The notes: a model not told the origin generated them from the letters alone. DNA of 64,000 nucleotides from Candidatus Bathycorpusculum sp. (GCA_009781395.1 WQYG01000001.1:3526-67525), one strand, 5' to 3'; positions 3,480-64,000 are shown, counted from the stretch's first letter. Translations and numbers: made by a program.

Positions 3480-3552
3480 TTAGTACAAAAAATAATAAGG
3501 TGTTAAGGTTTATTTATTTAGCATAACGTGTTTGATGACTTTGGCGGTAGCG

Positions 3553-12396: not shown

Positions 12397-12792
12397 TTAT
12401 GTTGTGTTTATGATTGCGATTTTTATTTGGGTTATTTGTTCGTTTTGGCGTAGGTTGTCTATGAATTTTTTTATGAGTTTGCCTTGTCCTCTTAGGATTA
12501 TTACTTCTAGGCAGTATCCTTGGTGTATGTGGGTGTGTAGGAAGGTTGTGACTAGTCCGCTGTGTAGGTGTTGGGTTTCGAGTAGGCGTTGTCTGTTTGC
12601 GTTTTCTTTGTAGATGAGTGTTGCTGTGGCGGTTGTTTCGTTGTTTATGTTTTCTATGTTTGGGTCTTCGGTTAGGTAGTGTCTTAGGGCTTGGCGGGTG
12701 ATTTCGGATCTGCTGGCGTAGCCTTTTTCTTTTATGGTTTGGTCGATTTGGGTTACTAGTTTGTCGGGGATGGATAGGCTTATTATTGTCAT
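12397..12792 (-). CDS. NikR-family ribbon-helix-helix metalloregulator
   Basis: IISLSIP...GYASRSEITRQALR RHH domain; QH...HTH...CLE metal ligands as in NikR. Confidence 0.85.
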   Translation of the reverse strand: MTIISLSIPDKLVTQIDQTIKEKGYASRSEITRQALRHYLTEDPNIENINNETTATATLIYKENANRQRLLETQHLHSGLVTTFLHTHIHQGYCLEVIILRGQGKLIKKFIDNLRQNEQITQIKIAIINTT

Positions 12793-12866
12793 GTTTTTTC
12801 TGATTGTTAATATGTGTTTGTCTTGTTAATAAATTTTAATATGTTTTAGGTTTAACGGCCTAATTG

Positions 12867-12894
12867 TTATTAATAAATTAAATAACTTTAATAA
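12867..12894. promoter_or_regulatory. Candidate NikR-type operator TTATTA-N16-TAATAA
   Basis: Inverted hexamers 16 bp apart in the divergent intergenic region; AT-rich context lowers significance. Confidence 0.35.
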
Positions 12895-12915
12895 TGTTGG
12901 TGTGTTAAAACATCC

Positions 12916-13911
12916 ATGAATAGAACTCAAAAAATCTTCCTAACAAGTCTCACCCTAATTACCCTAATCGCCCTAGTTGTTTTCATGGCATACACAGTAA
13001 CAGATACTCAAAGCGTATCATCAAATGATAAATTAAACATAGTTACTACCATTTACCCTTTAACTTATTTAACGCAACAAATAGGTGGTGACTATGTGAA
13101 AGTGACTCAGCTCATACCTAACAATGTTGAAATTCACAGTTGGGAACCCTCCGTTTCACACATAATGGCAGCCGAAGATGCAAACATTATCTTTTATAAC
13201 GGCGCAGATGCTGATCACTGGTTGGAAGAAGACATTTTACCTGCCTTATCAACCTCAAACAATAACCGAATTATTATTGAAACAACCGCCAACTTACCCC
13301 TTATCCCAATCACCGAACCGCATGAGCATAATGGAGACAACCACTCTGCCCATGATCACGGTTTGTATGACCCACACACTTGGTTAAGTCCCTACATGGC
13401 AAAACAACAAGCAAAAAACATTTACGATACCCTAATCAGAGTTGACCCTCAGCATGAAAAATATTACACACAAAACTGGCACAAACTAGAGCAACAACTT
13501 GAACAATTAGACAACCTCTACCTAAACAGTCTTACCAACAATAACCCAAACAAAAAGGTCATCTTTGTTTCCCATGAAGCATACGGATACTTGGCAGACC
13601 GATATGACTTCACACAACATGGCGCAATTGGCCTTTCCGCAGATCAACAACCCAGCATCACAAGTCTAAGCAAACTGATTAACGAAATGAAAGAATACCA
13701 AACCTACACCATATACTTTGACCCTGTCTACTCAGACAAATACATACAAACCATAAAAAACGATGTCCAAACCCAAACAGGACAAACCGTCACCATACTA
13801 AAACTATACCTACTTCTAGGCCCCATAGACAACTTGGATTACTTGGAACAAATGCAAACAAATCTTGTCAATTTACAAACAAGTTTAGAAACACCCAACA
13901 AAAATAAATAA
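12916..13911 (+). CDS. znuA: Zn/Mn ABC transporter substrate-binding protein (ZnuA/TroA family)
   Basis: EIHSWEP, His-rich loop HEHNGDNHSAHDHG, DPHTWLSP, SHEAYGY. Confidence 0.9.
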   Translation: MNRTQKIFLTSLTLITLIALVVFMAYTVTDTQSVSSNDKLNIVTTIYPLTYLTQQIGGDYVKVTQLIPNNVEIHSWEPSVSHIMAAEDANIIFYNGADADHWLEEDILPALSTSNNNRIIIETTANLPLIPITEPHEHNGDNHSAHDHGLYDPHTWLSPYMAKQQAKNIYDTLIRVDPQHEKYYTQNWHKLEQQLEQLDNLYLNSLTNNNPNKKVIFVSHEAYGYLADRYDFTQHGAIGLSADQQPSITSLSKLINEMKEYQTYTIYFDPVYSDKYIQTIKNDVQTQTGQTVTILKLYLLLGPIDNLDYLEQMQTNLVNLQTSLETPNKNK

Positions 13912-13938
13912 TAATCAACACACCACGATGAAAATAGT

Positions 13939-14730
13939 ATGACGACGCAAAATAATCCTGTTTTGGAGATAAAAAACCTCAAAATAACTCGTAACGATGA
14001 AACCATAATTGAAGATGCAACGTTTACAATTAACAAAGGCGACTATGTCGGCATAGTTGGACCCAACGGAGGCGGAAAAACCACCCTTCTAAGAGCCATC
14101 CTCAACTTTTTACCCTACACCCAAGGCTCCATACAATTATTTGGCCTAGATTCAACTAAATTTTCAGCATGGCAAAAAATCGCATACATCTCCCAACAAG
14201 CCACAAACTTTGAAGACCAATTCCCCTTAACTGTACGCGAACTGGTCTCTTTAGGCTGCGTAACAAAAGGCCATTTAGGCAGAAAATTTACCCCTAAAGA
14301 CTGGAAAAACGTAGATGATACCATTGAATTTATGGGATTAAGCGATGTGGCCAACCGACGAATAGGACAACTATCCGGCGGACAAAAACAACGCATGTTT
14401 GTCGCAAAAGCCTTAACCCATAAACCCGAATTAATCCTACTTGACGAACCCATAGTAGGCGTAGACTCAAATGCACAAGAAAAATTTTACAAAAAACTAA
14501 GCGACCTAAACCTTAAACACCAAACAACCATACTAATTGTCACCCACGACTTAACCTCCGTATTCTGCCGTATGTCAAAAATATTATGCATCAACAAAAA
14601 CATCGAACTCGCAAACATCACCCAAGACTTAAACCCAAACCAACTCCTCAAACGAGCCTACGGCGAACATTTCCATTTTGTATTCCACCAACACAACTGC
14701 AAAGGAGCATTCACCCCAAATGAGCCTTAA
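13939..14730 (+). CDS. znuC: Zn/Mn ABC transporter ATPase
   Basis: GPNGGGKTT, LSGGQKQR, ILLDEP, THD. Confidence 0.92.
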   Translation: MTTQNNPVLEIKNLKITRNDETIIEDATFTINKGDYVGIVGPNGGGKTTLLRAILNFLPYTQGSIQLFGLDSTKFSAWQKIAYISQQATNFEDQFPLTVRELVSLGCVTKGHLGRKFTPKDWKNVDDTIEFMGLSDVANRRIGQLSGGQKQRMFVAKALTHKPELILLDEPIVGVDSNAQEKFYKKLSDLNLKHQTTILIVTHDLTSVFCRMSKILCINKNIELANITQDLNPNQLLKRAYGEHFHFVFHQHNCKGAFTPNEP

Positions 14731-15532
14731 CATGCTTCACCTCTTTGAATACCAATTCTTCCAAAACGCCCTCCTAGGCGGCATAATCGTTGCAATAGTC
14801 TGCGGCTTAGTAGGCCTCTTTCTAATCCTTAAAAAAGAAGCCATGATAGGCGATGGCCTCTCACACACAGCCTTTGGCGGCATAGCCATAGGCCTCCTAC
14901 TGGGAATAAACCCTCTAATAACAGCCCTACTTACCTCCATTTTAGCCGTCTTTACAATATCCTATATGAGACGAAAAAAAATCGCCACCTCCGACTCCGC
15001 AGTAGCCATAATGCTAGCCCTTGGCTTCTCAACAGGACTAATCATCGTAAGCATAGCTGGAGGCTTCAACATTGAACTATTCAACTACCTATTCGGATCC
15101 ATACTAACCATAACCCTCTCAGACCTACTTCTAGTATCAGCCCTAAGCACCATTGTCCTAACATTCATCGGATTTTACCGACGAGAACTCCTCTCAATGA
15201 TATTTGACGAAGAAGACTCAAAAATAAGAGGCATACCCACAAACCGCCTAACAATAATCTTTGACCTCCTCACCGCCATCACAATTGTACTCTCCATCAA
15301 AGTAATCGGCACCATCCTCGTAGTAGCCCTCCTAGTAATCCCCGGACTATGCGCCCTAAAACTAAACCTATCCTTCAAAAAAACCCTACTCACAACAATA
15401 CTCTTCAGCACAATAAGCACCACCACAGGCATAATGGTCTCAGCAATATTTAACATAGTCACCGCAGGCATCATCGTACTAGTACTAGTCACATTCTTCA
15501 TAATCACCCTCATATACAAAAAACTCGAATAA
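14720..15532 (+). CDS. znuB: Zn/Mn ABC transporter permease
   Basis: IGDGLSHTAFGG, YLFGSIL, KVIGTILV. Confidence 0.92.
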   Translation: MSLNMLHLFEYQFFQNALLGGIIVAIVCGLVGLFLILKKEAMIGDGLSHTAFGGIAIGLLLGINPLITALLTSILAVFTISYMRRKKIATSDSAVAIMLALGFSTGLIIVSIAGGFNIELFNYLFGSILTITLSDLLLVSALSTIVLTFIGFYRRELLSMIFDEEDSKIRGIPTNRLTIIFDLLTAITIVLSIKVIGTILVVALLVIPGLCALKLNLSFKKTLLTTILFSTISTTTGIMVSAIFNIVTAGIIVLVLVTFFIITLIYKKLE

Positions 15533-53068: not shown

Positions 53069-53572
53069 TTATGTTTTGCGTTCTCGGCGTAGAAAGTCGC
53101 CTATATCTAATACGTTTGCTACAGCGGGCATATTTTTGTCAGTTTGGGGTTGTTGTTGTGTTAATTCAGTTAAAACTCTGCCAAATCCAAGGCATTCTCC
53201 AAATTCGTTAAATATTAAAACGTGACAGTTTCGTTGAATTCTGCCATAGGTTTGTACTATGCCTTTCTTAAAAATGTCGCGTCCACAGATAAATAACCAT
53301 CCTGCTTTTTGGTCAACTATTATTTTGTTAGCTTTCTGAGTTGCAATTATTGAGAGTAAATTAAAGCTTGGGAAAAACTTGTTTGCTCGAATTTTACCTA
53401 AAAAGATTCCTGCATAAAAAAAGTCGCCTTTAACCAGTAGCGGTTTAATTTGGTTGTTTAGCAAGAAAATGCGTCCATCCCGTTCAACTAGGAGGTTTTC
53501 GTTAAAGGTGAGTTTTACGCCAAATTGCAATGCAAAATCTACAACTGCTTTAATTTTCATGTTGAGGGGCAC
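53069..53572 (-). CDS. nip7: Nip7-like PUA-domain ribosome biogenesis protein
   Basis: AGIFLG, FFPS, FICGRDI, GECLGFG, DIGDFLRRE; coupled to an m5C methyltransferase gene. Confidence 0.8.
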   Translation of the reverse strand: MPLNMKIKAVVDFALQFGVKLTFNENLLVERDGRIFLLNNQIKPLLVKGDFFYAGIFLGKIRANKFFPSFNLLSIIATQKANKIIVDQKAGWLFICGRDIFKKGIVQTYGRIQRNCHVLIFNEFGECLGFGRVLTELTQQQPQTDKNMPAVANVLDIGDFLRRERKT

Positions 53573-54447
53573 CTCACAAGTTTACATACAAAGAAGCCCT
53601 GTGTTTGGTCAGGCCAGAACCTGCGGCAATGTACAATTGAGGGGTCTAATTGTTTTCCAAAAACGTTAGTTAACCCCAAAGTGCCCGGACAGTTAATTTC
53701 AGCTATCTGCAGATTTAATCGATGTATGGCCCAGTCTATGTTTAACTCGTTTTCTTCAGGTTCTAAAGAGCAAGTTGAGTAAACAATTTCTCCGTTCTCT
53801 GTTAGGCATTCGGCGGCTTTCATCAATATTTCTCGTTGCACCCTAGCGTTACGTTCAACATCTGTTAGGGTGCGATTTTGAAACCATCTAGGATCCGAAG
53901 CAAAATTTCCACTACAGGGGGCATCAACAAGGATACGATCAAATTTTAAACCCATTTTTGGACTGTTGCGTGCGTCAAGTTGATAAACAATAGTGTTTCT
54001 AACATGGCATCGTTCTAAATGGTTAGACAGCGCCGTTAACCGTTGTTTACTTATATCTAACGCAACTATACTGCCCGTGTTATCCATATCATTTGCCAAC
54101 TGGACTGTTTTTCCACCCGGCGCAGCTGAAGCATCAAGCACCCGCTTACCTTTAAGATTGGAAAATAAGGTTACAGGAACCTGCGCGGCGGCCTCTTGAA
54201 TAGAATACAACCCAAGCAAATACTCCGCGGTAGCACCCGCTGAAACCTTGGAATTACAAACCCAGTAACCTTGAGGCAAAAAACTAATCTTTTCCAAAGT
54301 TAAACCCAAACTCAAAAGACGCAAAACCAAAGCTTGCTGATTTCCATTATTAATAGTATGATTGAAACGTATGGCTTGTCGTAACTCTACGGGGCGATAC
54401 TTCCAACCTAACTGCTCGTAACGGCTCACAAAAAACTCTTTTCCCGA
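53557..54447 (-). CDS. RsmB/NOP2-family RNA m5C methyltransferase
   Basis: VLDASAAPGGKT, ILVDAPCSG, VYSTCS. Confidence 0.92.
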   Translation of the reverse strand, partial: SGKEFFVSRYEQLGWKYRPVELRQAIRFNHTINNGNQQALVLRLLSLGLTLEKISFLPQGYWVCNSKVSAGATAEYLLGLYSIQEAAAQVPVTLFSNLKGKRVLDASAAPGGKTVQLANDMDNTGSIVALDISKQRLTALSNHLERCHVRNTIVYQLDARNSPKMGLKFDRILVDAPCSGNFASDPRWFQNRTLTDVERNARVQREILMKAAECLTENGEIVYSTCSLEPEENELNIDWAIHRLNLQIAEINCPGTLGLTNVFGKQLDPSIVHCRRFWPDQTQGFFVCKLVRCPST

Positions 54448-54562
54448 CATCACCTTAAAAAGAAAAAACGAAAAATAAAAACCTTCCACAAAAAATAATC
54501 AAGCCGTCTAATGCCGTAAATCCTAAAAAGCACCGTGCATGATATAATAGGAGGAAGTTTTC

Positions 54563-55157: not shown

Positions 55158-55610
55158 TTGATGTTGAATATTATGCGTTACAAAGAAGGATTTAACAAAT
55201 TTTTGTTTTGTTTGGTGTTGTTATTATGTTTAGTGATGTTTATGGGTTGTTTTGTTGGTTTAGTAAATGCTCAGACATTTGGTTCAACTATTACTATTAT
55301 GCCGGATGGTAGTGTTGGGCGAACTGATCTGATTCAGCGGAACGGAGATGTTTATACTTTAAAAGGAGATATTTTTGGCACAATATCGGTTAAAAAAGAT
55401 GGCATTACAATTGATGGTGCCGGATATGCAATTAAAGGAACGGGAAACGGAATAGATTTACGAAAGAATTCTATGGCCATTCCGCCTGCGCATAGTAATG
55501 TTGTGGTGAAGAATGTTCGTTTTTGTGATAATAGTCTCATTTTTACTTCTGCGTGTAGTAACAGTTTCATCAACTACACGTCGATTGAATCGGTATTACT
55601 GAAGAATTAA
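55158..55610 (+). pseudogene. Truncated secreted beta-helix (NosD-like) protein
   Basis: Signal peptide; ITIMPDGSV...GDVYTL...ITIDGAGY; ends after about 150 aa with no TM anchor, just before a repeated hairpin. Confidence 0.6.
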
Positions 55611-55615
55611 ACACT

Positions 55616-55720
55616 AATTTTGTGGGTTTTTGGTGTGGTGTGTCCTTTTGTGGGGACAAAGACCACGCCAGCTTTGGTTATTTTTAGTTGGACGTGTTTG
55701 TTTGTGGGGTGCGGGTGTGA
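55616..55720 (+). repeat. About 105-bp repeat copy A containing a conserved hairpin
   Basis: Shares TTTTGGTGTGGTGTGTC, CAAAGACCACG and TTATTTTTAGTTG with 58895-59000. Confidence 0.75.
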
Positions 55721-55941
55721 TGTCAAGATTATTTACTCAATGATGACATCCATGGTGGCATGATGTGGTCATGTCACGGCATTAATCGGGTTGAAAGAGT
55801 TTTTATTTGTTTTCTTTGTTAGATGGGTTGTTGTGGGTGGGATTTGAATTGTTTGGTAAAGCTGTTTAAGTTGTCTTGTAGTAACAATGGGTGTGCTCCA
55901 AAAATAGGAGAGGTTGGTTTCTGAGAAATCAACAAACCCAT

Positions 55942-56868
55942 TTAAACTATGGCAGAATTAACTATTTTTGTTGTAGACTGTTTTTGTTTTTGCTTTTTTA
56001 AACGATAAAAAAACAAACCAACAACAACAGCAATAGCAACCGCTCCTGCGATAGGTAAAAGATAAGACTGCTCACCACCAGTCATAGGTTCGACAAACAC
56101 GTCTTCTTCCTCGACAAATACGTCATGACCTTCACCACTTAACGCTGTATTCAAAGAAAACTCTACAGATTTACCCATTTCAAAAGCAACCGTACTATAC
56201 ACACCCCCACCCTTATTAACAGCAGTATTATCCAAAATACGACTACCCCCGGAATTCACGGATAAGTCACCCTTATTGTAAACTCCACCCCCATTCTCCA
56301 TAGCAGCATTATTGGAAATTATTCCATCCCAGCCACCAACACCTCCATACATATAGAAAATGCCCTCATTGTACACTCCACCACCATAATCAGCAGCATT
56401 ACCAGAAATCACTCCTCCATAAAAGTCAAATTCGCCACCACGCTCAACATACACCCCACGACCAGTAGCACCCTTTGCATGTGTCACAACAATACCTCCA
56501 TAAAGCTTCAAATACCCACCCGACCTTACAATAATAGTGTCCATACCATCAGCTCCAACCAGAGAAACACCACCATCCTCATACGATACCAAGACAATTC
56601 CTTTGCCATCAGAGATTTCAAGAGGATTTTTCAAAAAAATGCTCTCCATAACATAAATTATGCACCCATCACTACCTGAAGTGTCAATAGCCTTTCTAAG
56701 GGCTGTCTCAGTTTTAACCTGAACATCTACATCCAACCATACACCACTAACTTCGGAAGTAAAAGGTGAAGAAAATAATGTTATTATGAAGAGTAAAGAA
56801 ATGAAGGTTAAAGTTTTTTTACTGAGAAATTGCTGCTGATTAAATTTAGGTTTAACAAACACGGCCAT
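55942..56868 (-). CDS. Secreted beta-helix adhesin-like protein with GGGVYN repeats and a TM anchor
   Basis: GGGVYN twice, GGGVYS; C-terminal TM helix plus RLKKQKQK; paralogue of 28992-30281. Confidence 0.78.
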   Translation of the reverse strand: MAVFVKPKFNQQQFLSKKTLTFISLLFIITLFSSPFTSEVSGVWLDVDVQVKTETALRKAIDTSGSDGCIIYVMESIFLKNPLEISDGKGIVLVSYEDGGVSLVGADGMDTIIVRSGGYLKLYGGIVVTHAKGATGRGVYVERGGEFDFYGGVISGNAADYGGGVYNEGIFYMYGGVGGWDGIISNNAAMENGGGVYNKGDLSVNSGGSRILDNTAVNKGGGVYSTVAFEMGKSVEFSLNTALSGEGHDVFVEEEDVFVEPMTGGEQSYLLPIAGAVAIAVVVGLFFYRLKKQKQKQSTTKIVNSAIV

Positions 56869-57173: not shown

Positions 57174-58559
57174 TTAGAATACGCGAATTGCATCAAAATA
57201 TACATCTCCTACGGCGTTCCAGTCGTTAACGACAACTATGGTGATATATTTAAAATTGGACACATAGCCCAAAACGAGGTCATCTGCGCCAGATTGGTTC
57301 TGAGGGTGGGTACAATAGTTTGTGTCTGCAATTGTTGTCCAGTTGATTTTGTCGTTAGATACTTTGACTATTAAATGGGTTCCAGTTGTTGCTGTGTATC
57401 CATACATTTTAATAGTGCCACTTAATGAAGTGCCAGGATTGTTTATGTTATGCATGTTCGCATATATTACTGCATAGTCATAATAGAGTGGACTGTACCA
57501 GTAGCCCGAATGCAAATAAACGTACTTTTTGTCAACCAAAGCGCCCGTTATGCTCTTAGAATCGACGACACTTCCGTATCTTATGAATTCAGAAGTTGCG
57601 CTTAGAGCGTAGCCTTTTACATCATATCGAACTCGATTTATCCAAAGGTTGGTATCGCATGTAGAGCAATAGTGTGTAGCGTGACCTTTACAAGAAAAAC
57701 ACATGATGCAACATGAAGATGATGATGGATTATGTGCTTGGTCGTTACAACCGAACAGGTGTGATAGTTCATGCTGGACAAGATTAATAATGGGTCCATA
57801 TTGGATGGCGTATCCTACACGTATTACCGCACCACTACCATGACCGTCTCCTTTACCGTCATAGTCCCAGCCATATCCAACACCAGGGTTGCCACCACTT
57901 TCAAGTTGATTTGTCAATAGTATTACTATGTCACAACCTGAATTTTTTACAAAATTTTCGTTCAATAAGGCGCTTAACAAAGATGAGTACTTTGTTAGGT
58001 GATTGGGTGAATTCCATGTGTCATTATAGGCATGCATGTTAAACGTAATGTCGTAATTGTCATCCAAATTGGCTGAGCCATCGGCTAGAACTAACGTAGC
58101 CCAATTGTACAGGTTGGATGCAGGCATATTCATAGGGTTCAGTTTGCTCCAGAAGTCTCGGGCTTCTTCATCAATAACCACCATTACTTTTACGTTTGCT
58201 TTTGCGCGTGAGCTTTGTCTGCCTTCGTTTTCCTCTTCTTGAGGGGAGGGCTGTTTAGGTGTAACGTATTCTGGGATGTGTGCAAATCTGGCTATGTCTT
58301 CTAAGGTAAAATTTTCTGCTCCAGGTAGGGGTGGTGGCGGGGGACAACTACGTCCTTCACCGTATGCATTGCATCCGAAATGGTTGTCATTGTGGGTGTG
58401 TTCTTCAGTGCAGTATTCGTCTAAGCAGTTTTCGTTGTTGTTTTGTAGCGGGTTTTCGGCTATGGCGGTTTGGATTGGTTGCATTATGCCTGTGCCTAAT
58501 AAAACTAAAACAGCACAGACCGTCATGCTGAGTATTAATTTCTTTTTAAACACGTTCAT
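57174..58559 (-). CDS. Secreted metzincin-type (reprolysin-like) zinc protease
   Basis: Signal peptide, Cys/His-rich pro-region, KVMVVIDEE, HELSHLFGCND, CCIM Met-turn; C-terminal VSNDKINW. Confidence 0.72.
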   Translation of the reverse strand: MNVFKKKLILSMTVCAVLVLLGTGIMQPIQTAIAENPLQNNNENCLDEYCTEEHTHNDNHFGCNAYGEGRSCPPPPPLPGAENFTLEDIARFAHIPEYVTPKQPSPQEEENEGRQSSRAKANVKVMVVIDEEARDFWSKLNPMNMPASNLYNWATLVLADGSANLDDNYDITFNMHAYNDTWNSPNHLTKYSSLLSALLNENFVKNSGCDIVILLTNQLESGGNPGVGYGWDYDGKGDGHGSGAVIRVGYAIQYGPIINLVQHELSHLFGCNDQAHNPSSSSCCIMCFSCKGHATHYCSTCDTNLWINRVRYDVKGYALSATSEFIRYGSVVDSKSITGALVDKKYVYLHSGYWYSPLYYDYAVIYANMHNINNPGTSLSGTIKMYGYTATTGTHLIVKVSNDKINWTTIADTNYCTHPQNQSGADDLVLGYVSNFKYITIVVVNDWNAVGDVYFDAIRVF

Positions 58560-58894: not shown

Positions 58895-59000
58895 AAATTT
58901 GGAGGTTTTGGTGTGGTGTGTCAGCTTTTTTGGGCTGGCAAAGACCACGTTAACTCACAGATTATTTTTAGTTGAATGTGCTGGTGGGGGTGTGGGTGTG
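58895..59000 (+). repeat. About 105-bp repeat copy B containing a conserved hairpin
   Basis: See copy A; inner stem differs with pairing retained. Confidence 0.75.
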
Positions 59001-59003
59001 TTT

Positions 59004-59315
59004 TTATTTTCGTGTGGGTGGGTTTTCTTTGTAGTATGCGCCTGCTAGAAATATTAGGGTTAGGATGTAGGGTTCTAGGTGGTTGATTGTGTGTTTTGCT
59101 TGTTTGATGTTTTTTGTTACGTTTTTTAGTATGTCTGTGTTGGTTTCGTGGTCGTAAAAGTCTTTTTCTATGTTGTTTAGGTGTTCGAGGATTAGGTTTT
59201 TTATTTTTTCGTCGCTGTCGGCTAGTTCGTTTATGCCTTCGCTTATTTGTAGGGCTTCTACTGTTGGGTTGTAGACGGTTGTTGCTTGGGTGTTTTCGGG
59301 TTTGAGTTTGAACAT
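59004..59315 (-). CDS. Hypothetical helical protein (probably proviral)
   Basis: 103-aa ORF, divergent from the packaging operon. Confidence 0.5.
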   Translation of the reverse strand: MFKLKPENTQATTVYNPTVEALQISEGINELADSDEKIKNLILEHLNNIEKDFYDHETNTDILKNVTKNIKQAKHTINHLEPYILTLIFLAGAYYKENPPTRK

Positions 59316-59540
59316 TTGGTTTATCCCTTGTAATGTTGTTTGTGGTTGAGGTATTTTTGTGTTTGTTTGTTGTTATTGCAAGTTTTTCAGGGGAAGTTGT
59401 GGTGTTTCTTGTGGAAAACTTTTAAATACCCCTGGCGCCCTCAACTATTTTGTAATATTATTACGTTTCAGGTTTCCTCATTCCGCGCCTAAACCTATGG
59501 TTTATCCCCTGCGGGGGACGTATGGAGTGTCATACTATTT

Positions 59541-59915
59541 ATGCCCCACCACCATTCTTTAAAACAATACACCCTATATCTACAACGTAGAGAGTCTGCA
59601 AAAAAATATGCACTATCCCTACTTAGTGATCTTGCACTATATGATTTAGAAGAACACGAACAAATAAACACCCTGCTGCAACCAACTGATTTCTCCAACG
59701 CCTTAACAAATCAGTACCCAAACGTAGACGCAGACACAATACTACCCGAGTTGCCCCCTGATTCTTTAGAAAAAGGCTTAGTCTTAAAAGACCGCTACGG
59801 CAGAGGCGCCCTGCAGCAAGACGACAAACCCAACAAAACCTTAACCGTAGATCAATGGCGCGAACAATTTCGCCTACAACTCTATCAAACCACTAAACGA
59901 GGGGTAACCATGTGA
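59541..59915 (+). CDS. Hypothetical proviral protein
   Basis: 124-aa ORF with ATGTGA overlap with the next gene. Confidence 0.6.
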   Translation: MPHHHSLKQYTLYLQRRESAKKYALSLLSDLALYDLEEHEQINTLLQPTDFSNALTNQYPNVDADTILPELPPDSLEKGLVLKDRYGRGALQQDDKPNKTLTVDQWREQFRLQLYQTTKRGVTM

Positions 59916-60211
59916 CAGAAAAAGCCGCCGTCATGAGTCAAGACGACTCTTTACTCTCACGCATAAACGCCATAGAAATCGCTCAACTTTTAACCTACAA
60001 AGAACACATCCAAACAAACTTACTAGACCGCATTGACAAAATCGAAAAAACCCAAACAACCCAAACCACGCAACTTGAAGAAATAAACCTGCAATTAACC
60101 AAACACATATCCGTCCAAGAATCTTTGACAAACCATTACAAGGCACTCTTAACAGGCGTCTTTGGCGTCATAGGCGGCGCAATCATCACCTACCTCCTCC
60201 AAACACTCTAG
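59912..60211 (+). CDS. Coiled-coil protein with a C-terminal TM helix (XhlA/holin-like)
   Basis: Heptad region LLDRIDKIEK followed by ALLTGVFGVIGGAIITYLL. Confidence 0.55.
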   Translation: MTEKAAVMSQDDSLLSRINAIEIAQLLTYKEHIQTNLLDRIDKIEKTQTTQTTQLEEINLQLTKHISVQESLTNHYKALLTGVFGVIGGAIITYLLQTL

Positions 60212-60221
60212 GTTTTCACAG

Positions 60222-60905
60222 GTGAACAAACAAATGTTTTCCCCCCCAAAACCTACTCAACAAACCCAACTCTTCCCCACCCAAAAAAAAGAGTTGGAAA
60301 ACACAAAAGAAACAATATTTATAGAAAACACTGTTAAACCCCGACGTCAAAGTCTTTATCGCGGTGGCGCCAAATGCTTCCGTGTCCCCTCTGTGGAACA
60401 AACTAACCTAAACGGTGGCATTGTTCCGGCAAACACAAAGCCTCTTCCCGTTAGTGTGGTTGACAAAAATAAGCCTACAGATTTTATACGCAAAGCCCGA
60501 ACTAGAGCGTTAATTAATGGTTTATTAGATTTTAAAAGTTTAAACCAAGTTGCAGTAGAATTAGGTGTTGCCCGCGTTACCTTACTACGCGACTTCCACA
60601 GGTGGGCTAAAAAACATAACATGGCGTTTGTTGAAACAGAATGGATGGAACGCTACCAAAAAATGAAAAAAACCAATGAAGTGGTATCGTTTAACGCTTT
60701 AACAAACATCTATAGACAATTAATTGCAATCCAAGCCAAAGTGAATGTTAATGTTACAAACCAAATCCTTAGCATTAACCGAGCCGCTTCAGACACTGAA
60801 CTTGCAAAACAACTTGCCATGTACCAAAAACTCGTTTACGGAACAGTTGCAACAGAAACAGTTGTTGAAGTGGAAAATTTTCGAGCTCTCAATTCTGCAC
60901 AATAA
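60222..60905 (+). CDS. Putative terminase small subunit (HTH)
   Basis: SLNQVAVELGVARVTLLRD HTH; overlaps the start of the large terminase. Confidence 0.6.
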   Translation: MNKQMFSPPKPTQQTQLFPTQKKELENTKETIFIENTVKPRRQSLYRGGAKCFRVPSVEQTNLNGGIVPANTKPLPVSVVDKNKPTDFIRKARTRALINGLLDFKSLNQVAVELGVARVTLLRDFHRWAKKHNMAFVETEWMERYQKMKKTNEVVSFNALTNIYRQLIAIQAKVNVNVTNQILSINRAASDTELAKQLAMYQKLVYGTVATETVVEVENFRALNSAQ

Positions 60906-62127
60906 GTACATCCCTTGGAAACCTACGCCTAAACAGTGCGAATTTTTGTTGCGTGATGAGCTGGAGGTTTTGTTTGGAGGTGCAGCAGGTGGGGGAAAGA
61001 CAGCCGGTACTGCTATGGCAGCCTTGCAGTATGTGGGGGAGCCTAATTATCGGGCTTTAATTCTTAGACGGCAGTTAACCGACGCCAAACTTTCAGGGGG
61101 CATCAGTGAGGTTTTGGATGATTGGTTGACTAATACGGATGCTAAAAAGGTGGGGGATGCATGGTATTTTCCCTCAGGCGCTATTGTGCAACTGGGGTAT
61201 CTAAAGTCGCCTCAGGATATGTACCGCTACGACAGTAGCAGGTTTGATGCAGAATTCTTTGAGGAATTAACCCATTTTCTTGAACTGCAGTATCGTTACA
61301 TGATTGCCCGTGTTAGGCGGGCTCGTAACAGCAACATTCCTCCAAGAGTGTGGAGCACCACAAATCCCGGGGGAAAAGGGCATCATTGGGTAAAAGCCAA
61401 ATTCATTGATCACAATCATGACCCAACCTGTAAATTTGTCCCTGCCCGTCTAAAAGACAACCCCTACATAGACCAAAAAACCTACATTTCAAGTTTAAAC
61501 AAACTTGACCCCATAACCCGAGCACAAAAACTAGACGGCAACTGGATAGTATCCTTAGCTGACTCATTGTTTAAACGTGAAAAAGTCCAAATAATTCCCC
61601 AGTTACCTCAAGGTTTAAAGTTTGTGCGGTACTGGGACAAAGCCTCAACTGTGCCGAAAAAGAATAATCAAGACCCTGACTACACGGTGGGGGTAAAGCT
61701 TGCTGAACAACAAGGCATATACTTTTTTGTTGATGTGGTGCGGGTGCGCAGAACTAGTGCGGATGTTCAGGCCTTAATTGCGCAAGTTGCGCAATTAGAT
61801 GGGGTGGCAACTAAAATTTATATGGAGCAAGAACCCGGCAGTTCAGGGGTTGATGTCATCAACTATTACGCCCGAGAAGTGTTAAAGGGGTATAGTTTTT
61901 ATGGGGTAAAAACGACGGGGTCAAAAACTGATAGGGCTGCGCCTTTGTCTGCTGCCTGGGATAATGGCAATGTTCGTTTGCTTTTAGCGTCGTGGAATAC
62001 GGAATTTCTTGATGAGTTGGAGCTTTTTCCACAGGGTGCACATGATGATCAGGTGGATGCGGCGTCAGGTGCGTTTGAGCAAATACGCATCAAAACCGCA
62101 GCCCCCCCAGTATTCAAAATACACTAA
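60862..62127 (+). CDS. Terminase large subunit
   Basis: PTPKQ, Walker A GGAAGGGKT, Walker B FFEELTHF, STTNPG, RNase H-like WDKA...DYTVG...HDDQVDA; TTG start inferred. Confidence 0.93.
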   Translation: MLKWKIFELSILHNKYIPWKPTPKQCEFLLRDELEVLFGGAAGGGKTAGTAMAALQYVGEPNYRALILRRQLTDAKLSGGISEVLDDWLTNTDAKKVGDAWYFPSGAIVQLGYLKSPQDMYRYDSSRFDAEFFEELTHFLELQYRYMIARVRRARNSNIPPRVWSTTNPGGKGHHWVKAKFIDHNHDPTCKFVPARLKDNPYIDQKTYISSLNKLDPITRAQKLDGNWIVSLADSLFKREKVQIIPQLPQGLKFVRYWDKASTVPKKNNQDPDYTVGVKLAEQQGIYFFVDVVRVRRTSADVQALIAQVAQLDGVATKIYMEQEPGSSGVDVINYYAREVLKGYSFYGVKTTGSKTDRAAPLSAAWDNGNVRLLLASWNTEFLDELELFPQGAHDDQVDAASGAFEQIRIKTAAPPVFKIH

Positions 62128-62157
62128 CAACAAAAACAATAAAAATTAAAAGTTTGG

Positions 62158-63714
62158 TTGAGGAAAAAAAGTTTGTCTGTGACTCGGTTTGGTGCAAAAG
62201 TTACTAAGGATGGGGGGTTAATTCTGCATCCTTCCTTAGCGGTAGTAGGGGATATGGGTGATGTGCGGGGTCAGGATGTTTCAGCTGACACGGATGCGGG
62301 GTTTGGGCAGCCCATATCGGATAGTGAACTCTCGTTTGCTGCTTGCCGTGAACCCGTTGCTCATTTTTTGACTTATGGGGTAGCAGCTGATGTGACTGAT
62401 AAATGGTTCTACGTTGATGACTTAGACACCAAAAACCCCGATGTCGAATTAGATAATAATGTGCAGATGGCTTTAGATGAGATAGATTTTCGCGAAGTGT
62501 TAACCGAAGCCTTAATCCAAGCTCGCATTTACCGCAAAAGCCTAATTGTCTGCGCCTTTGATGATGCCAAAGACGTTTCCGAACTAAAGCAGCCAAGAAA
62601 GGAAGGCGCCAAGCTTTTACAGTTTGAAACCTACCCTAAAACTGAGAATAGCCAAAAACTCTTTCCTTACTCTGTGGACAAAAAAGATGACGACGTCAAA
62701 AGCTTACGGTATGGTAAACCTGTACTTTACCGTATAGACCGAGGTGGGGGGAACGTGCTTTTAGTGCATTTTTCACGTTGCATTGAGGTGGATAACAAGT
62801 TTTCTGTTTTAGCGCCCATCTTTGATGATTTAGTCTGTGGACGCAATATACGTTGGGGAGCTGCTCAGTGGCTCTACCGCACAGGTGGTGGTTTTCCTGT
62901 TTTGGGTTTTCCACGGGGGACTCCCTTGGAAGATTTGGAAAAGTATTGTGCCTCAGGGGCTTTTAACGATTTGATGAATCGTAGTTACATTACTTTAGCG
63001 CAGAACAGTAAAGACGAAAACGACGGCATGACCATAGATTTTAAAGGCGCCGCCAACACCACCCTAAACCCTGTCCCCTTCCTAAAAAGTAACATTGAAC
63101 AAATCAGCATCGCAACCGGTATCCCTCAAGCAAAACTTGTAGGTGCCCAAGCAGGCGCCCTAACAGGCAGCAACGTAAACATGCAAGACTACTTTAAAGT
63201 CATAAGCCGCATACAAAACGGTCTGCCCACAAAAATTGCTAAACAAGTAATCCTCTGGCTAGCTGAGAGCGGCCAAATCACCCGCCTAAAAACCATAGCT
63301 CAAACAGATAGTTTAACCAGGCAGTTTATTAAAAAATTCCACAGAGGCGACTATCGTAAAAAAATTGTGCAACACTTTGCCATAGTTTGGAACAGTGCTT
63401 TTGAGCATTCAGAAATAGATAAAGCAAAAATTGAACTCGACAACGTCCGCAGCAACCAAGGAAAACTAGACTATATGACTATAGACGAAGTTCGAGCAAG
63501 CGAAGACCTAGACCCCTTGCCAAATAAAGAAGGCGAAAAACTAAAACGTTCAAGTTTAAACGAACTCTTCACTACCCCACCTTCTTCCTCAAACACCAAA
63601 GAAAACAGTAGTACACCTGAGCAGCAGTTGCAACAAGCCGACAAATTCCTACTAGTCGACTTAACCCCCAAACCCCCTCAACCACCAGCTTTTCACTCCG
63701 ACGATGCAACTTAG
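62158..63714 (+). CDS. Phage portal protein (DUF1073/HI1409-like)
   Basis: Follows terminase; RYGKPVLYRI, ISIATGIPQAKLVGAQAGALTGS, DYMTIDEVR. Confidence 0.85.
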   Translation: MRKKSLSVTRFGAKVTKDGGLILHPSLAVVGDMGDVRGQDVSADTDAGFGQPISDSELSFAACREPVAHFLTYGVAADVTDKWFYVDDLDTKNPDVELDNNVQMALDEIDFREVLTEALIQARIYRKSLIVCAFDDAKDVSELKQPRKEGAKLLQFETYPKTENSQKLFPYSVDKKDDDVKSLRYGKPVLYRIDRGGGNVLLVHFSRCIEVDNKFSVLAPIFDDLVCGRNIRWGAAQWLYRTGGGFPVLGFPRGTPLEDLEKYCASGAFNDLMNRSYITLAQNSKDENDGMTIDFKGAANTTLNPVPFLKSNIEQISIATGIPQAKLVGAQAGALTGSNVNMQDYFKVISRIQNGLPTKIAKQVILWLAESGQITRLKTIAQTDSLTRQFIKKFHRGDYRKKIVQHFAIVWNSAFEHSEIDKAKIELDNVRSNQGKLDYMTIDEVRASEDLDPLPNKEGEKLKRSSLNELFTTPPSSSNTKENSSTPEQQLQQADKFLLVDLTPKPPQPPAFHSDDAT

Positions 63715-63991
63715 CAGCCTAATTGGCGCCATACGCTTAATCCAAATGGGGGATAAGCGTTGGATTCCACAGCAGTTGCGCGGGTATAGTTTTTTTAGTA
63801 AACTTGATGAGTGGGGTTTTCAGTCAAGTGAACACCAAAACATGTGCATTACATGTGAGGACTTTAATGGCCAAGTTTTTGCAGGCGATGAACTACGCCG
63901 CACTTTTCCCTATTTAACTGTGGAATCTAAAAACACAATTTCCCCCAATGTGCATCCCAACTGCAAATGCACCCTACAAAGAGAAAATTAA
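63704..63991 (+). CDS. Short head-morphogenesis (Mu gpF/SPP1 gp7-like) motif protein
   Basis: CITC...NGQVF...VHPNCKC (HxNCRC-type motif), overlapping the portal stop. Confidence 0.7.
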   Translation: MQLSSLIGAIRLIQMGDKRWIPQQLRGYSFFSKLDEWGFQSSEHQNMCITCEDFNGQVFAGDELRRTFPYLTVESKNTISPNVHPNCKCTLQREN

Positions 63992-64000
63992 ATGTACGTA

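Follow-up and report, generated by a model that had tools for sequence, protein, structure and literature searches.

A probable temperate tailed provirus of the termite-gut archaeon Candidatus Bathycorpusculum

Do the packaging genes at the right edge of a 64,000-nucleotide stretch of archaeal DNA belong to a complete virus, and is that virus one of the archaeon itself? The stretch (the window) comprises positions 3526 to 67525 of contig C1 (WQYG01000001.1) in GCA_009781395.1, a 95%-complete metagenome-assembled genome (MAG; G000) of Candidatus Bathycorpusculum sp. with 163 contigs, 2.13 Mb and 39.0% G+C. An original prediction, made from the sequence, had placed a head-tail provirus packaging module at 59004-64000. 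C1 extends 16 kb beyond the window's right edge and, read together with a second contig, C32, it allows both questions to be answered with a very probable yes: the window holds the left third of a complete temperate Caudoviricetes provirus of a termite-gut Bathyarchaeia archaeon, Ca. Bathycorpusculum. We conclude that this is a recently mobile temperate virus of a known kind, from an undescribed mosaic lineage. Bathyarchaeia are abundant, almost uncultured archaea, and their classified tailed viruses fall into two families only, both from hot or deep-sea orders. The element would give a complete reference genome to a mosaic lineage so far known as fragments.

Positions below are those of the window unless a contig is named. 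Further right we use L002 coordinates, which cover C1's right part (window coordinate = L002 + 60090); L008 is the C32 sequence. Depth and junctions were checked on Logan contigs of four runs, X1 to X4. The sequence-bearing runs are all termite-gut metagenomes; X3 and X4, whose contigs are identical in length, may represent a duplicate filing of a single data set. Comparisons with deposited viruses covered 50,697 phage genomes, and those with related genomes covered 61 relatives.

Ends of the element and the gene it splits

Where does the element begin and end? On the left, a provirus border splits a host gene for a secreted beta-helix (PbH1-type) surface protein, whose N-terminal part occupies 55158-55574 (plus strand). 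The gene's frame continues for 11 codons past 55574 into the element and stops at 55610, giving a 150-amino-acid (aa) open reading frame (ORF; 55158-55610) that consists of a signal peptide and the first beta-helix turns. The C-terminal part of the gene lies at C32 18705-18896, and C32 18680-18896 encodes later beta-helix turns without a start of their own. In the relative G027, an intact homologue of 337 aa aligns with the N-terminal part over its residues 16-161; when the two flanks are joined, they match the intact ORF colinearly and without gaps at 70% identity (residues 14-201).

The split gene also served to locate a 6-bp core, ATCAAC, at the left and right attachment sites, attL (55569-55574) and attR (C32 18705-18710). 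It corresponds to Ile-Asn codons that both gene halves retain. In context, attL reads TTTC-ATCAAC-TACACG and attR reads GCTT-ATCAAC-AACATC, while the intact G027 gene reads TTTC-ATCAAC-AACAC. The G027 DNA contains ATCAAC once and has 46 of 52 flanking bases in common with the joined flanks, as a family member rather than a proven syntenic orthologue. Since the flanks rebuild a G027-like gene with a single ATCAAC, the insert runs from 55575 to the end of C1 and then from position 1 to 18704 of C32. It measures 43,220 bp, further CAAA units not counted, and has 42.0% G+C against 39.0% for the genome. Its start lies 3.4 kb to the left of the region flagged originally, and the predicted extent from 59004 is corrected accordingly.

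Are these junctions seen outside the MAG? In X1 and X2, single Logan contigs span attL (55246-56036) and attR (C32 10008-18926). In X3 and X4, a 492-nt contig, found from both element ends, reads ...GATGCCGATAGAACCATGAGCTT-ATCAAC-TACACGTCGATTGAATCGG... and joins the right end of the element to the left end (GCTT-ATCAAC-TACACG). This contig represents an attP junction, whether from a circle, a concatemer or a tandem copy. The original prediction had named an integrase with att repeats, circular-junction reads and CRISPR spacers as things to look for, and each now has its counterpart: tyrosine recombinases with a duplicated 6-bp core, a contig joining the two element ends, and three matching spacers in the array of the same MAG. 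Its suggestion of long residence in the host found no support, given the difference in G+C, the intact hallmark genes, two perfect spacers and the joined ends.

Other candidate boundaries were rejected. Searches for att sites as direct repeats of at least 12 nt, and then of at least 9 nt, between the left region and the C32 end gave chance matches only, and no tRNA was found near either element end. Two hairpin modules (A and B, below) were discarded as att sites: the element encloses both of them, and contig C55 has a third copy next to a PMP paralogue. A left boundary at 59,000 is contradicted by the attP contig and by a Logan contig covering 56959-64000.

Could the whole arrangement be an artefact of assembly or binning, with a free virus or a bacterial phage misjoined to an archaeal contig? 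The MAG is fragmented, the element is spread over two of its 163 contigs at three G+C points above the genome, and relatives of its large terminase (TerL) at 41-47% identity occur in many bacterial MAGs. Yet independent Logan assemblies of two runs cross both host-virus junctions in single contigs, and these junctions fall exactly at a split host gene that the flanks rebuild. Bathycorpusculum-type contigs supply the nearest relatives of TerL, the capsid and neighbouring ORFs, and the matching spacers reside in a chromosomal array among archaeal ribosomal-protein genes. We regard an artefact as highly improbable.

The connection between the two contigs is provided by a microsatellite. C1 ends in (CAAA)28, and C32, the only other contig holding (CAAA)n, starts with (CAAA)30. 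C32 and the viral part of C1 have the same Logan depth, 25-27 in X1 and 5-6.5 in X3. With at least 28-30 units, the tract is internal to the provirus (L002 19868-20000 and L008 1-121), and a small two-helix membrane ORF that enters it at the contig end (L002 19682-19999) takes its (KQTN)n tail from it. A coding tetranucleotide tract of this sort could switch frame by slippage.

The host and its CRISPR array

To which cell does the virus belong? The host flanks encode archaeal EF-2, HisRS, GlnA, an archaeal PUA protein and the NOP2 methylase. EF-2 is 96% identical to that of a Ca. Bathycorpusculum terrae MAG and 80% identical to that of another Bathyarchaeota MAG, in agreement with the Bathyarchaeia-like host first proposed.

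Contig C18 carries an array of clustered regularly interspaced short palindromic repeats (CRISPR) at 12487-15323 (L145 7381-10217), with 38 copies of the 37-nt repeat GGTTCAAAATAATCTCCCACTTAAAGGGAATTGAAAG and 37 spacers. Its neighbours encode D-aminoacyl-tRNA deacylase, Spt5 and the ribosomal proteins L11, L1 and L10. Spacer 10 matches the primase gene of the element at 37/37 positions, and the gene for its 975-aa protein is matched by spacer 31 at 38/38 and, at its end, by spacer 9 at 33/38. The 5' flanks of the protospacers are CCT, CCA and CCT (CCW), which we take to resemble the CCN motif of type I-A systems. Cas1, the Cas3 core and a DevR-type Cas7 were not found in this 95%-complete MAG. 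Either the array is an orphan that targets its own genome without harm, or the MAG merges lysogens with immune cells; both readings of the self-targeting tie the virus to this host population. Three lines of evidence that do not depend on binning link virus and host: integration junctions at single-base resolution, the rebuilding of the target gene, and a chromosomal array whose spacers match. The array was not resolved by Logan contigs, and short DNA matches to the 975-aa gene in the relatives G083 and G085 do not lie in CRISPR arrays.

Packaging, virion, replication and integration genes

Does the element encode what a tailed virus needs? Between 59004 and 64000, the ORF listing and family scans recovered every ORF that the original prediction had described, in an apparently uninterrupted module. 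TerL (60745-62127, plus strand) matches Terminase_6N (5e-11) and Terminase_6C (7e-15) in Pfam and phrog_979 (3.5e-105). Its Walker A lysine K85, E174 and the nuclease residues D298, D434 and D435 occupy invariant columns of a 22-sequence alignment, and the ATPase and nuclease motifs are intact as predicted. Because public gene calls give 392 aa and homologue alignments begin at about residue 45, the real start of TerL is probably downstream of 60745. The 518-aa portal (62158-63714, plus strand) is indeed of the DUF1073 type, now Phage_portal_3 (Pfam 1.8e-16; phrog_146 1.5e-27). It is followed by a 95-aa stand-alone protein with the C-terminal zinc motif of Mu F, CxxC...HPNCKC (63704-63991, plus strand), whose match to Phage_Mu_F is confined to the C-terminal end of that family (E 4.5e-4, under the Pfam cut-off). 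This ORF has a real stop inside the window and is therefore not clipped by the window's edge. It had been called unusually short, and it does consist of the motif only, but a relative in IMG/VR (L120) has a 104-aa counterpart between portal and protease; the short form is therefore conserved, and is neither a remnant nor an oddity.

Upstream of TerL, and overlapping the start of its ORF, lies the 227-aa ORF that had been described as a helix-turn-helix (HTH) protein (60222-60905, plus strand). It is conserved 5' of TerL, at 40% identity to the counterpart in the related contig L005, but family scans gave no significant HTH match for it; a weak HTH_11 match was seen in the L003 counterpart only. 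From its position, the L005 identity and the L003 match, we infer that it is a candidate DNA-binding small terminase. The XhlA/holin-like character of a 99-aa coiled-coil protein (59912-60211, plus strand) is borne out by a C-terminal membrane helix and by weak PHROG matches to XhlA/hemolysin (phrog_1193, 1.2e-4) and holin (phrog_689, 6.5e-3), which make it a candidate lysis factor; it is 29% identical to its L005 counterpart. A 124-aa viral ORF (59541-59915, plus strand) shares 39% identity with the ORF in the corresponding place of L005, where the order of these three small ORFs is kept. The 103-aa ORF on the minus strand (59004-59315) was assigned no function by family scans and has no counterpart in relatives, the L005 contig included.

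Capsid and tail genes had been expected further to the right. The first expectation was borne out. A DUF2213 prohead protease (L002 3935-4822; Pfam 2e-13) is followed by a coiled-coil scaffold-like ORF (L002 4937-5392), an XM1 gp53-like, decoration-like ORF with weak Ig-like-domain matches (L002 5392-5847) and a 295-aa capsid protein (L002 5849-6736; phrog_264). Linocin_M18 (2e-24) is the sole Pfam match of the capsid protein above cut-off, and a 32-sequence profile run against PDB sequences found type-1 encapsulins only (E 2e-26). Its AlphaFold2 model (mean predicted local distance difference test score, pLDDT, 80.5) has the HK97 fold; its Foldseek hits at E 1e-15 to 1e-24 comprise HK97-fold shells as well as viral capsid proteins. 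The best 50 PDB fold matches are all encapsulins, with template-modelling (TM) scores of 0.80-0.82, against about 0.66 for viral capsid models. The nearest solved relatives in both sequence and fold are type-1 encapsulins such as Myxococcus xanthus EncA and that of Quasibacillus thermotolerans (6NJ8), and the protein is nearer to these than to any deposited viral capsid protein.

Perhaps, then, the locus encodes a cellular encapsulin nanocompartment or a domesticated gene-transfer-agent-like system? The only Pfam match, the only PDB-sequence matches and the best fold matches of the capsid would all agree with this. Its surroundings would not: the gene belongs to the packaging and maturation operon of a mobile virus, among portal, terminase, prohead protease and scaffold and with no adjoining cargo enzyme, and the element has replication genes, methylases, an integrase, att sites and a joined-ends contig of its own. 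Viral capsid proteins with the Linocin_M18 signature are rare but already described (PMC13669383). We consider this explanation scarcely credible; a capsid so like an encapsulin in a provirus bears on the debate over how encapsulins and HK97-fold viruses are related (PMC13669383).

Beyond the capsid gene lies a 2267-aa protein (L002 7159-13962), whose roughly 20 Flg_new (Listeria-Bacteroides) units form three blocks with two inserts of about 190 aa between them. Its last 100 or so residues are kept in a 1459-aa counterpart in L003, and 24 cluster representatives have this C-terminal domain, either alone (in versions of 89-133 aa) or preceded by other N-terminal domains. A stand-alone homologue matches Phage_Mu_Gp36 at 28.7 bits, above cut-off, and Phage_connect_1 weakly; the domain profile finds Mu gpJ structures in the PDB at E 0.012. 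By these matches the last 100 or so residues would be of the Mu gp36 (gpJ) or HK97 gp6 adaptor type. Unlike such adaptors, the domain is fused behind about 2150 residues that contain the repeats and the two inserts, and we infer that the giant protein could be a head-tail adaptor with a long adhesive extension. We know of no described adaptor with a comparable extension of some 2150 residues. A single-sequence AlphaFold model of the adaptor-like domain had a pLDDT of 40 and was not used.

What of the tail? Next come ORFs of 154, 168, 88, 120 and 184 aa (L002 13981-16182), of which the 120-aa one (L002 15261-15623) is a second Mu-F-motif paralogue, and then the 975-aa protein (L002 16531-19458). 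No family or PDB match was obtained for the 154-, 168-, 184- and 975-aa products, and PDB sequence searches with the 975-, 168- and 154-aa proteins, as well as the 382-aa recombinase described below, came back empty. The adaptor-like domain is the only detection on the tail side, and a weak one. No long helical tape-measure candidate was found, which hints at a short tail; the 975-aa protein is likely a receptor-binding or tail protein.

The C32 part encodes a PrimPol-D5 primase-helicase (phrog_864, 5e-83), a DUF5131 protein, a CxxCxxCC protein, a Cas4-like nuclease, a C5 methylase (5e-80) and an MT-A70 methylase (3e-29). At its right end it has a pair of tyrosine-recombinase-like paralogues, of 201 and 382 aa, the longer of which starts 53 bp from attR. 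The 201-aa paralogue matches Phage_integrase at 4e-4. The 382-aa recombinase has no direct Pfam match of its own, and its homologues at 37-44% identity carry PF00589. A second recombinase in the same genome, 37% identical to the 382-aa one (C80 3410-4354), may mark another integrated element.

Three hallmarks of Caudoviricetes are present, namely an HK97-fold capsid, a TerL with ATPase and RNaseH-like nuclease domains, and a portal. So are those of a provirus: a recombinase near one end, a duplicated core, a relative with the intact gene, and joined ends. From these genes a life cycle can be proposed. The divergent 382-aa tyrosine recombinase would integrate and excise the genome at ATCAAC; the circle would be replicated by the PrimPol-D5 primase-helicase, and the C5 and MT-A70 methylases would modify the DNA. 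The putative small terminase and TerL would push DNA through the DUF1073-type portal into a prohead built of the encapsulin-like HK97-fold capsid protein, the scaffold and the decoration-like protein, and matured by the DUF2213 protease. The Mu gp36/gp6-type domain of the 2267-aa protein might place its 20 or so Flg_new repeats at the neck as adhesive fibres, with the 975-aa protein as the likely receptor-binding or tail component. The integrated virus, in turn, may supply the cell with an adhesin-like surface protein and a secreted metallopeptidase.

Several observations weigh against a complete temperate virus. Neither reads nor contigs were shown to span the microsatellite between C1 and C32. 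The junction contig possibly comes from one data set (X3/X4), and a tandem double lysogen or a concatemer is conceivable. The perfect self-targeting spacers could mean that the MAG is composite and that array and provirus come from separate cells. The adaptor was assigned transitively and on weak scores, and family scans of the element's proteins recognised no tail tube, sheath, tape measure or baseplate, so that the predicted tail genes, as opposed to the capsid and further virion genes, were not identified. Finally, virus and host depths stand at a ratio of about 1, with host contigs at 19-31 and the element at 25-27 in X1. Of the coverage comparison suggested originally, the equal depth of C1 and C32 came out as expected for one element; a ratio of about 1 gives no sign of active replication in X1 and X2. 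An apparent excess of virus depth (26 vs 20, X1) was dismissed, as other host contigs read 25-31.

Some of these points would also suit a cryptic or defective provirus, able to integrate and excise but forming no infectious virions, for example through an incomplete tail module. Recognisable tail tube, tape measure and baseplate genes are missing, the depth ratio to the host is about 1, and an insertion-sequence (IS)-like repeat 190 bp outside attR indicates local genome decay. Against this, the hallmark genes are all uninterrupted, the order from small ORFs through the giant protein to the 154-aa ORF is kept in independent contigs, two perfect spacers with consistent flanks point to a recent exposure of the population, and the joined-ends contig exists. 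We think a defective provirus unlikely, and continue to favour a complete temperate virus.

Relatives, cargo genes and neighbouring sequences

How new is the lineage? Among deposited viruses, TerL is most similar to that of psiM2 (45%), followed by actinophages (38%); the portal reaches only 20-24% identity to deposited phage portals, and the capsid, the 975-aa protein and the recombinase have zero matches. The nearest TerL relatives are metagenomic, at 66-69% identity, and include a Ca. Bathycorpusculum terrae contig; TerL was present in 7 of the 61 relatives, all of the same genus. By these best-match identities the terminase falls outside classified virus genera, and the suspicion of a new lineage is upheld. 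The Methanobavirales viruses psiM2, of Methanobacterium, and psiM100, of Methanothermobacter, resemble the element as temperate or temperate-derived tailed viruses of anaerobic archaea, with TerL at 45% and 44% over 88% of the protein. TerL alone matches: their structural module is not shared, neither capsid nor portal finding a match there, their genomes are 26-31 kb vs 43 kb here, and their host belongs to another phylum.

The lineage is mosaic, because the contigs closest in TerL carry other head genes and the head module matches elsewhere. L003 (ERZ27257344 k141_2183132, 36 kb) and L031/L005 (WRCG01000033, Ca. Bathycorpusculum terrae) are the 66-69% TerL relatives. They share the order of small ORFs, HTH protein, TerL and giant Flg_new protein, the C-terminal domain of the latter (43%) and a homologous ORF of about 150 aa behind it (34%); L003 also has DUF5131 and C5 methylase genes. 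They differ in their portal, their full-length 267-aa Mu-F protein, their protease-scaffold fusion and their capsid protein of 321-334 aa, all of other families. The head module here matches IMG/VR contigs such as L120, which has the portal, the 104-aa Mu-F-motif ORF, the DUF2213 protease and the capsid in the same order as here. P0122 and P0124 match the capsid at 75-78% identity, and if they share contigs with P0011 and P0013, which the equal lengths of their longest contigs suggest, TerL there is about 56% identical.

Fuxiviridae and Kunpengviridae (ICTV, 2025) are Caudoviricetes of Bathyarchaeia, and a Cas4-like nuclease occurs in both (PMC10848311). Their exemplars are PP467601 and PP467599. 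Compared by description only, they share class and nuclease with the element, and Kunpengvirus an integrase as well. They differ in their hosts, which are Bifangarchaeales and Jinwuousiales from hot springs and hydrothermal vents, and Kunpengvirus has its own family-B polymerase and MCM-like helicase vs the PrimPol-D5 protein here. Another study reports eight Bathyarchaeia tailed proviruses and mentions neither termites nor Bathycorpusculum, and in the literature searched we found no paper tying a virus to this termite-gut and soil genus.

A broader reading joins these threads, and we judge it about evenly balanced between right and wrong: a new family-level tailed lineage specific to Bathycorpusculum, with a Flg_new neck-fibre adaptor, a near-encapsulin capsid and conversion of the host surface. 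The lineage would comprise the provirus and its metagenomic relatives and cover termite-gut and soil Bathyarchaeia. Its adaptor would be drawn out into a fibre of 1400-2300 residues, probably for adhesion to particles or cells in the gut, and its capsid would rank with the viral proteins most closely related to type-1 encapsulins. The host would have one surface-protein gene destroyed and gain an adhesin-like protein and a metallopeptidase. Leads to follow are an integrase whose 6-bp core lies in a coding gene, a cell surface altered by lysogenic conversion, and the adaptor-fibre fusion.

The two cargo genes lie at the left end, both on the minus strand. The first (55942-56868) encodes a 308-aa secreted PMP-repeat adhesin-like protein with weak Chlam_PMP and LPXTG-anchor matches in Pfam, a C-terminal membrane anchor and dozens of paralogues in the genome. 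The second (57174-58559) encodes a 461-aa secreted reprolysin/M12-like zinc metallopeptidase with an HELSH motif (Reprolysin_5, 9e-11); it is single copy in the genome and shares one Logan contig with the packaging genes. Given the 492-nt junction contig, the cargo genes travel with the virus.

Copies A and B of a hairpin module bracket this cargo. Copy A, at the left provirus end (55575-55720, plus strand), contains the palindrome CGATTGAATCG; copy B (58906-59000, plus strand) is about 75% identical to it, and a third copy (C55 14288-14502) adjoins a PMP-family paralogue. All three consist of palindrome, hairpin, TTATTTTTAGTTG and GGGGTGNGGGTGTG. The modules may mark how the cargo came from the host.

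Outside attR, the beta-helix gene is interrupted by the IS-like repeat, which forms the last 120 nt of C32 (L008 18897-19016). The same sequence of at least 120 nt (start CTTAACTTGACCCACAATG) ends five contigs, C32 and the starts of C59, C62, C90 and C100, and on C62 this repeat interrupts a PMP gene. In Logan it belongs to a 1.7-kb contig at depth 127, about five times genome depth.

In the relative G008 the gene order is NOP2 methylase, beta-helix surface protein, HMG-CoA reductase; here the reductase is on C70, next to an ORF of about 510 aa whose 5' end is cut off by the start of the contig (C70 1-1750). Finally, the NOP2/Sun methylase gene to the left of the element (53557-54489) has orthologues in G001, G002, G003, G010 and G012 with one in-frame stop, TGA (TAG in G003), which is not present in this genome.

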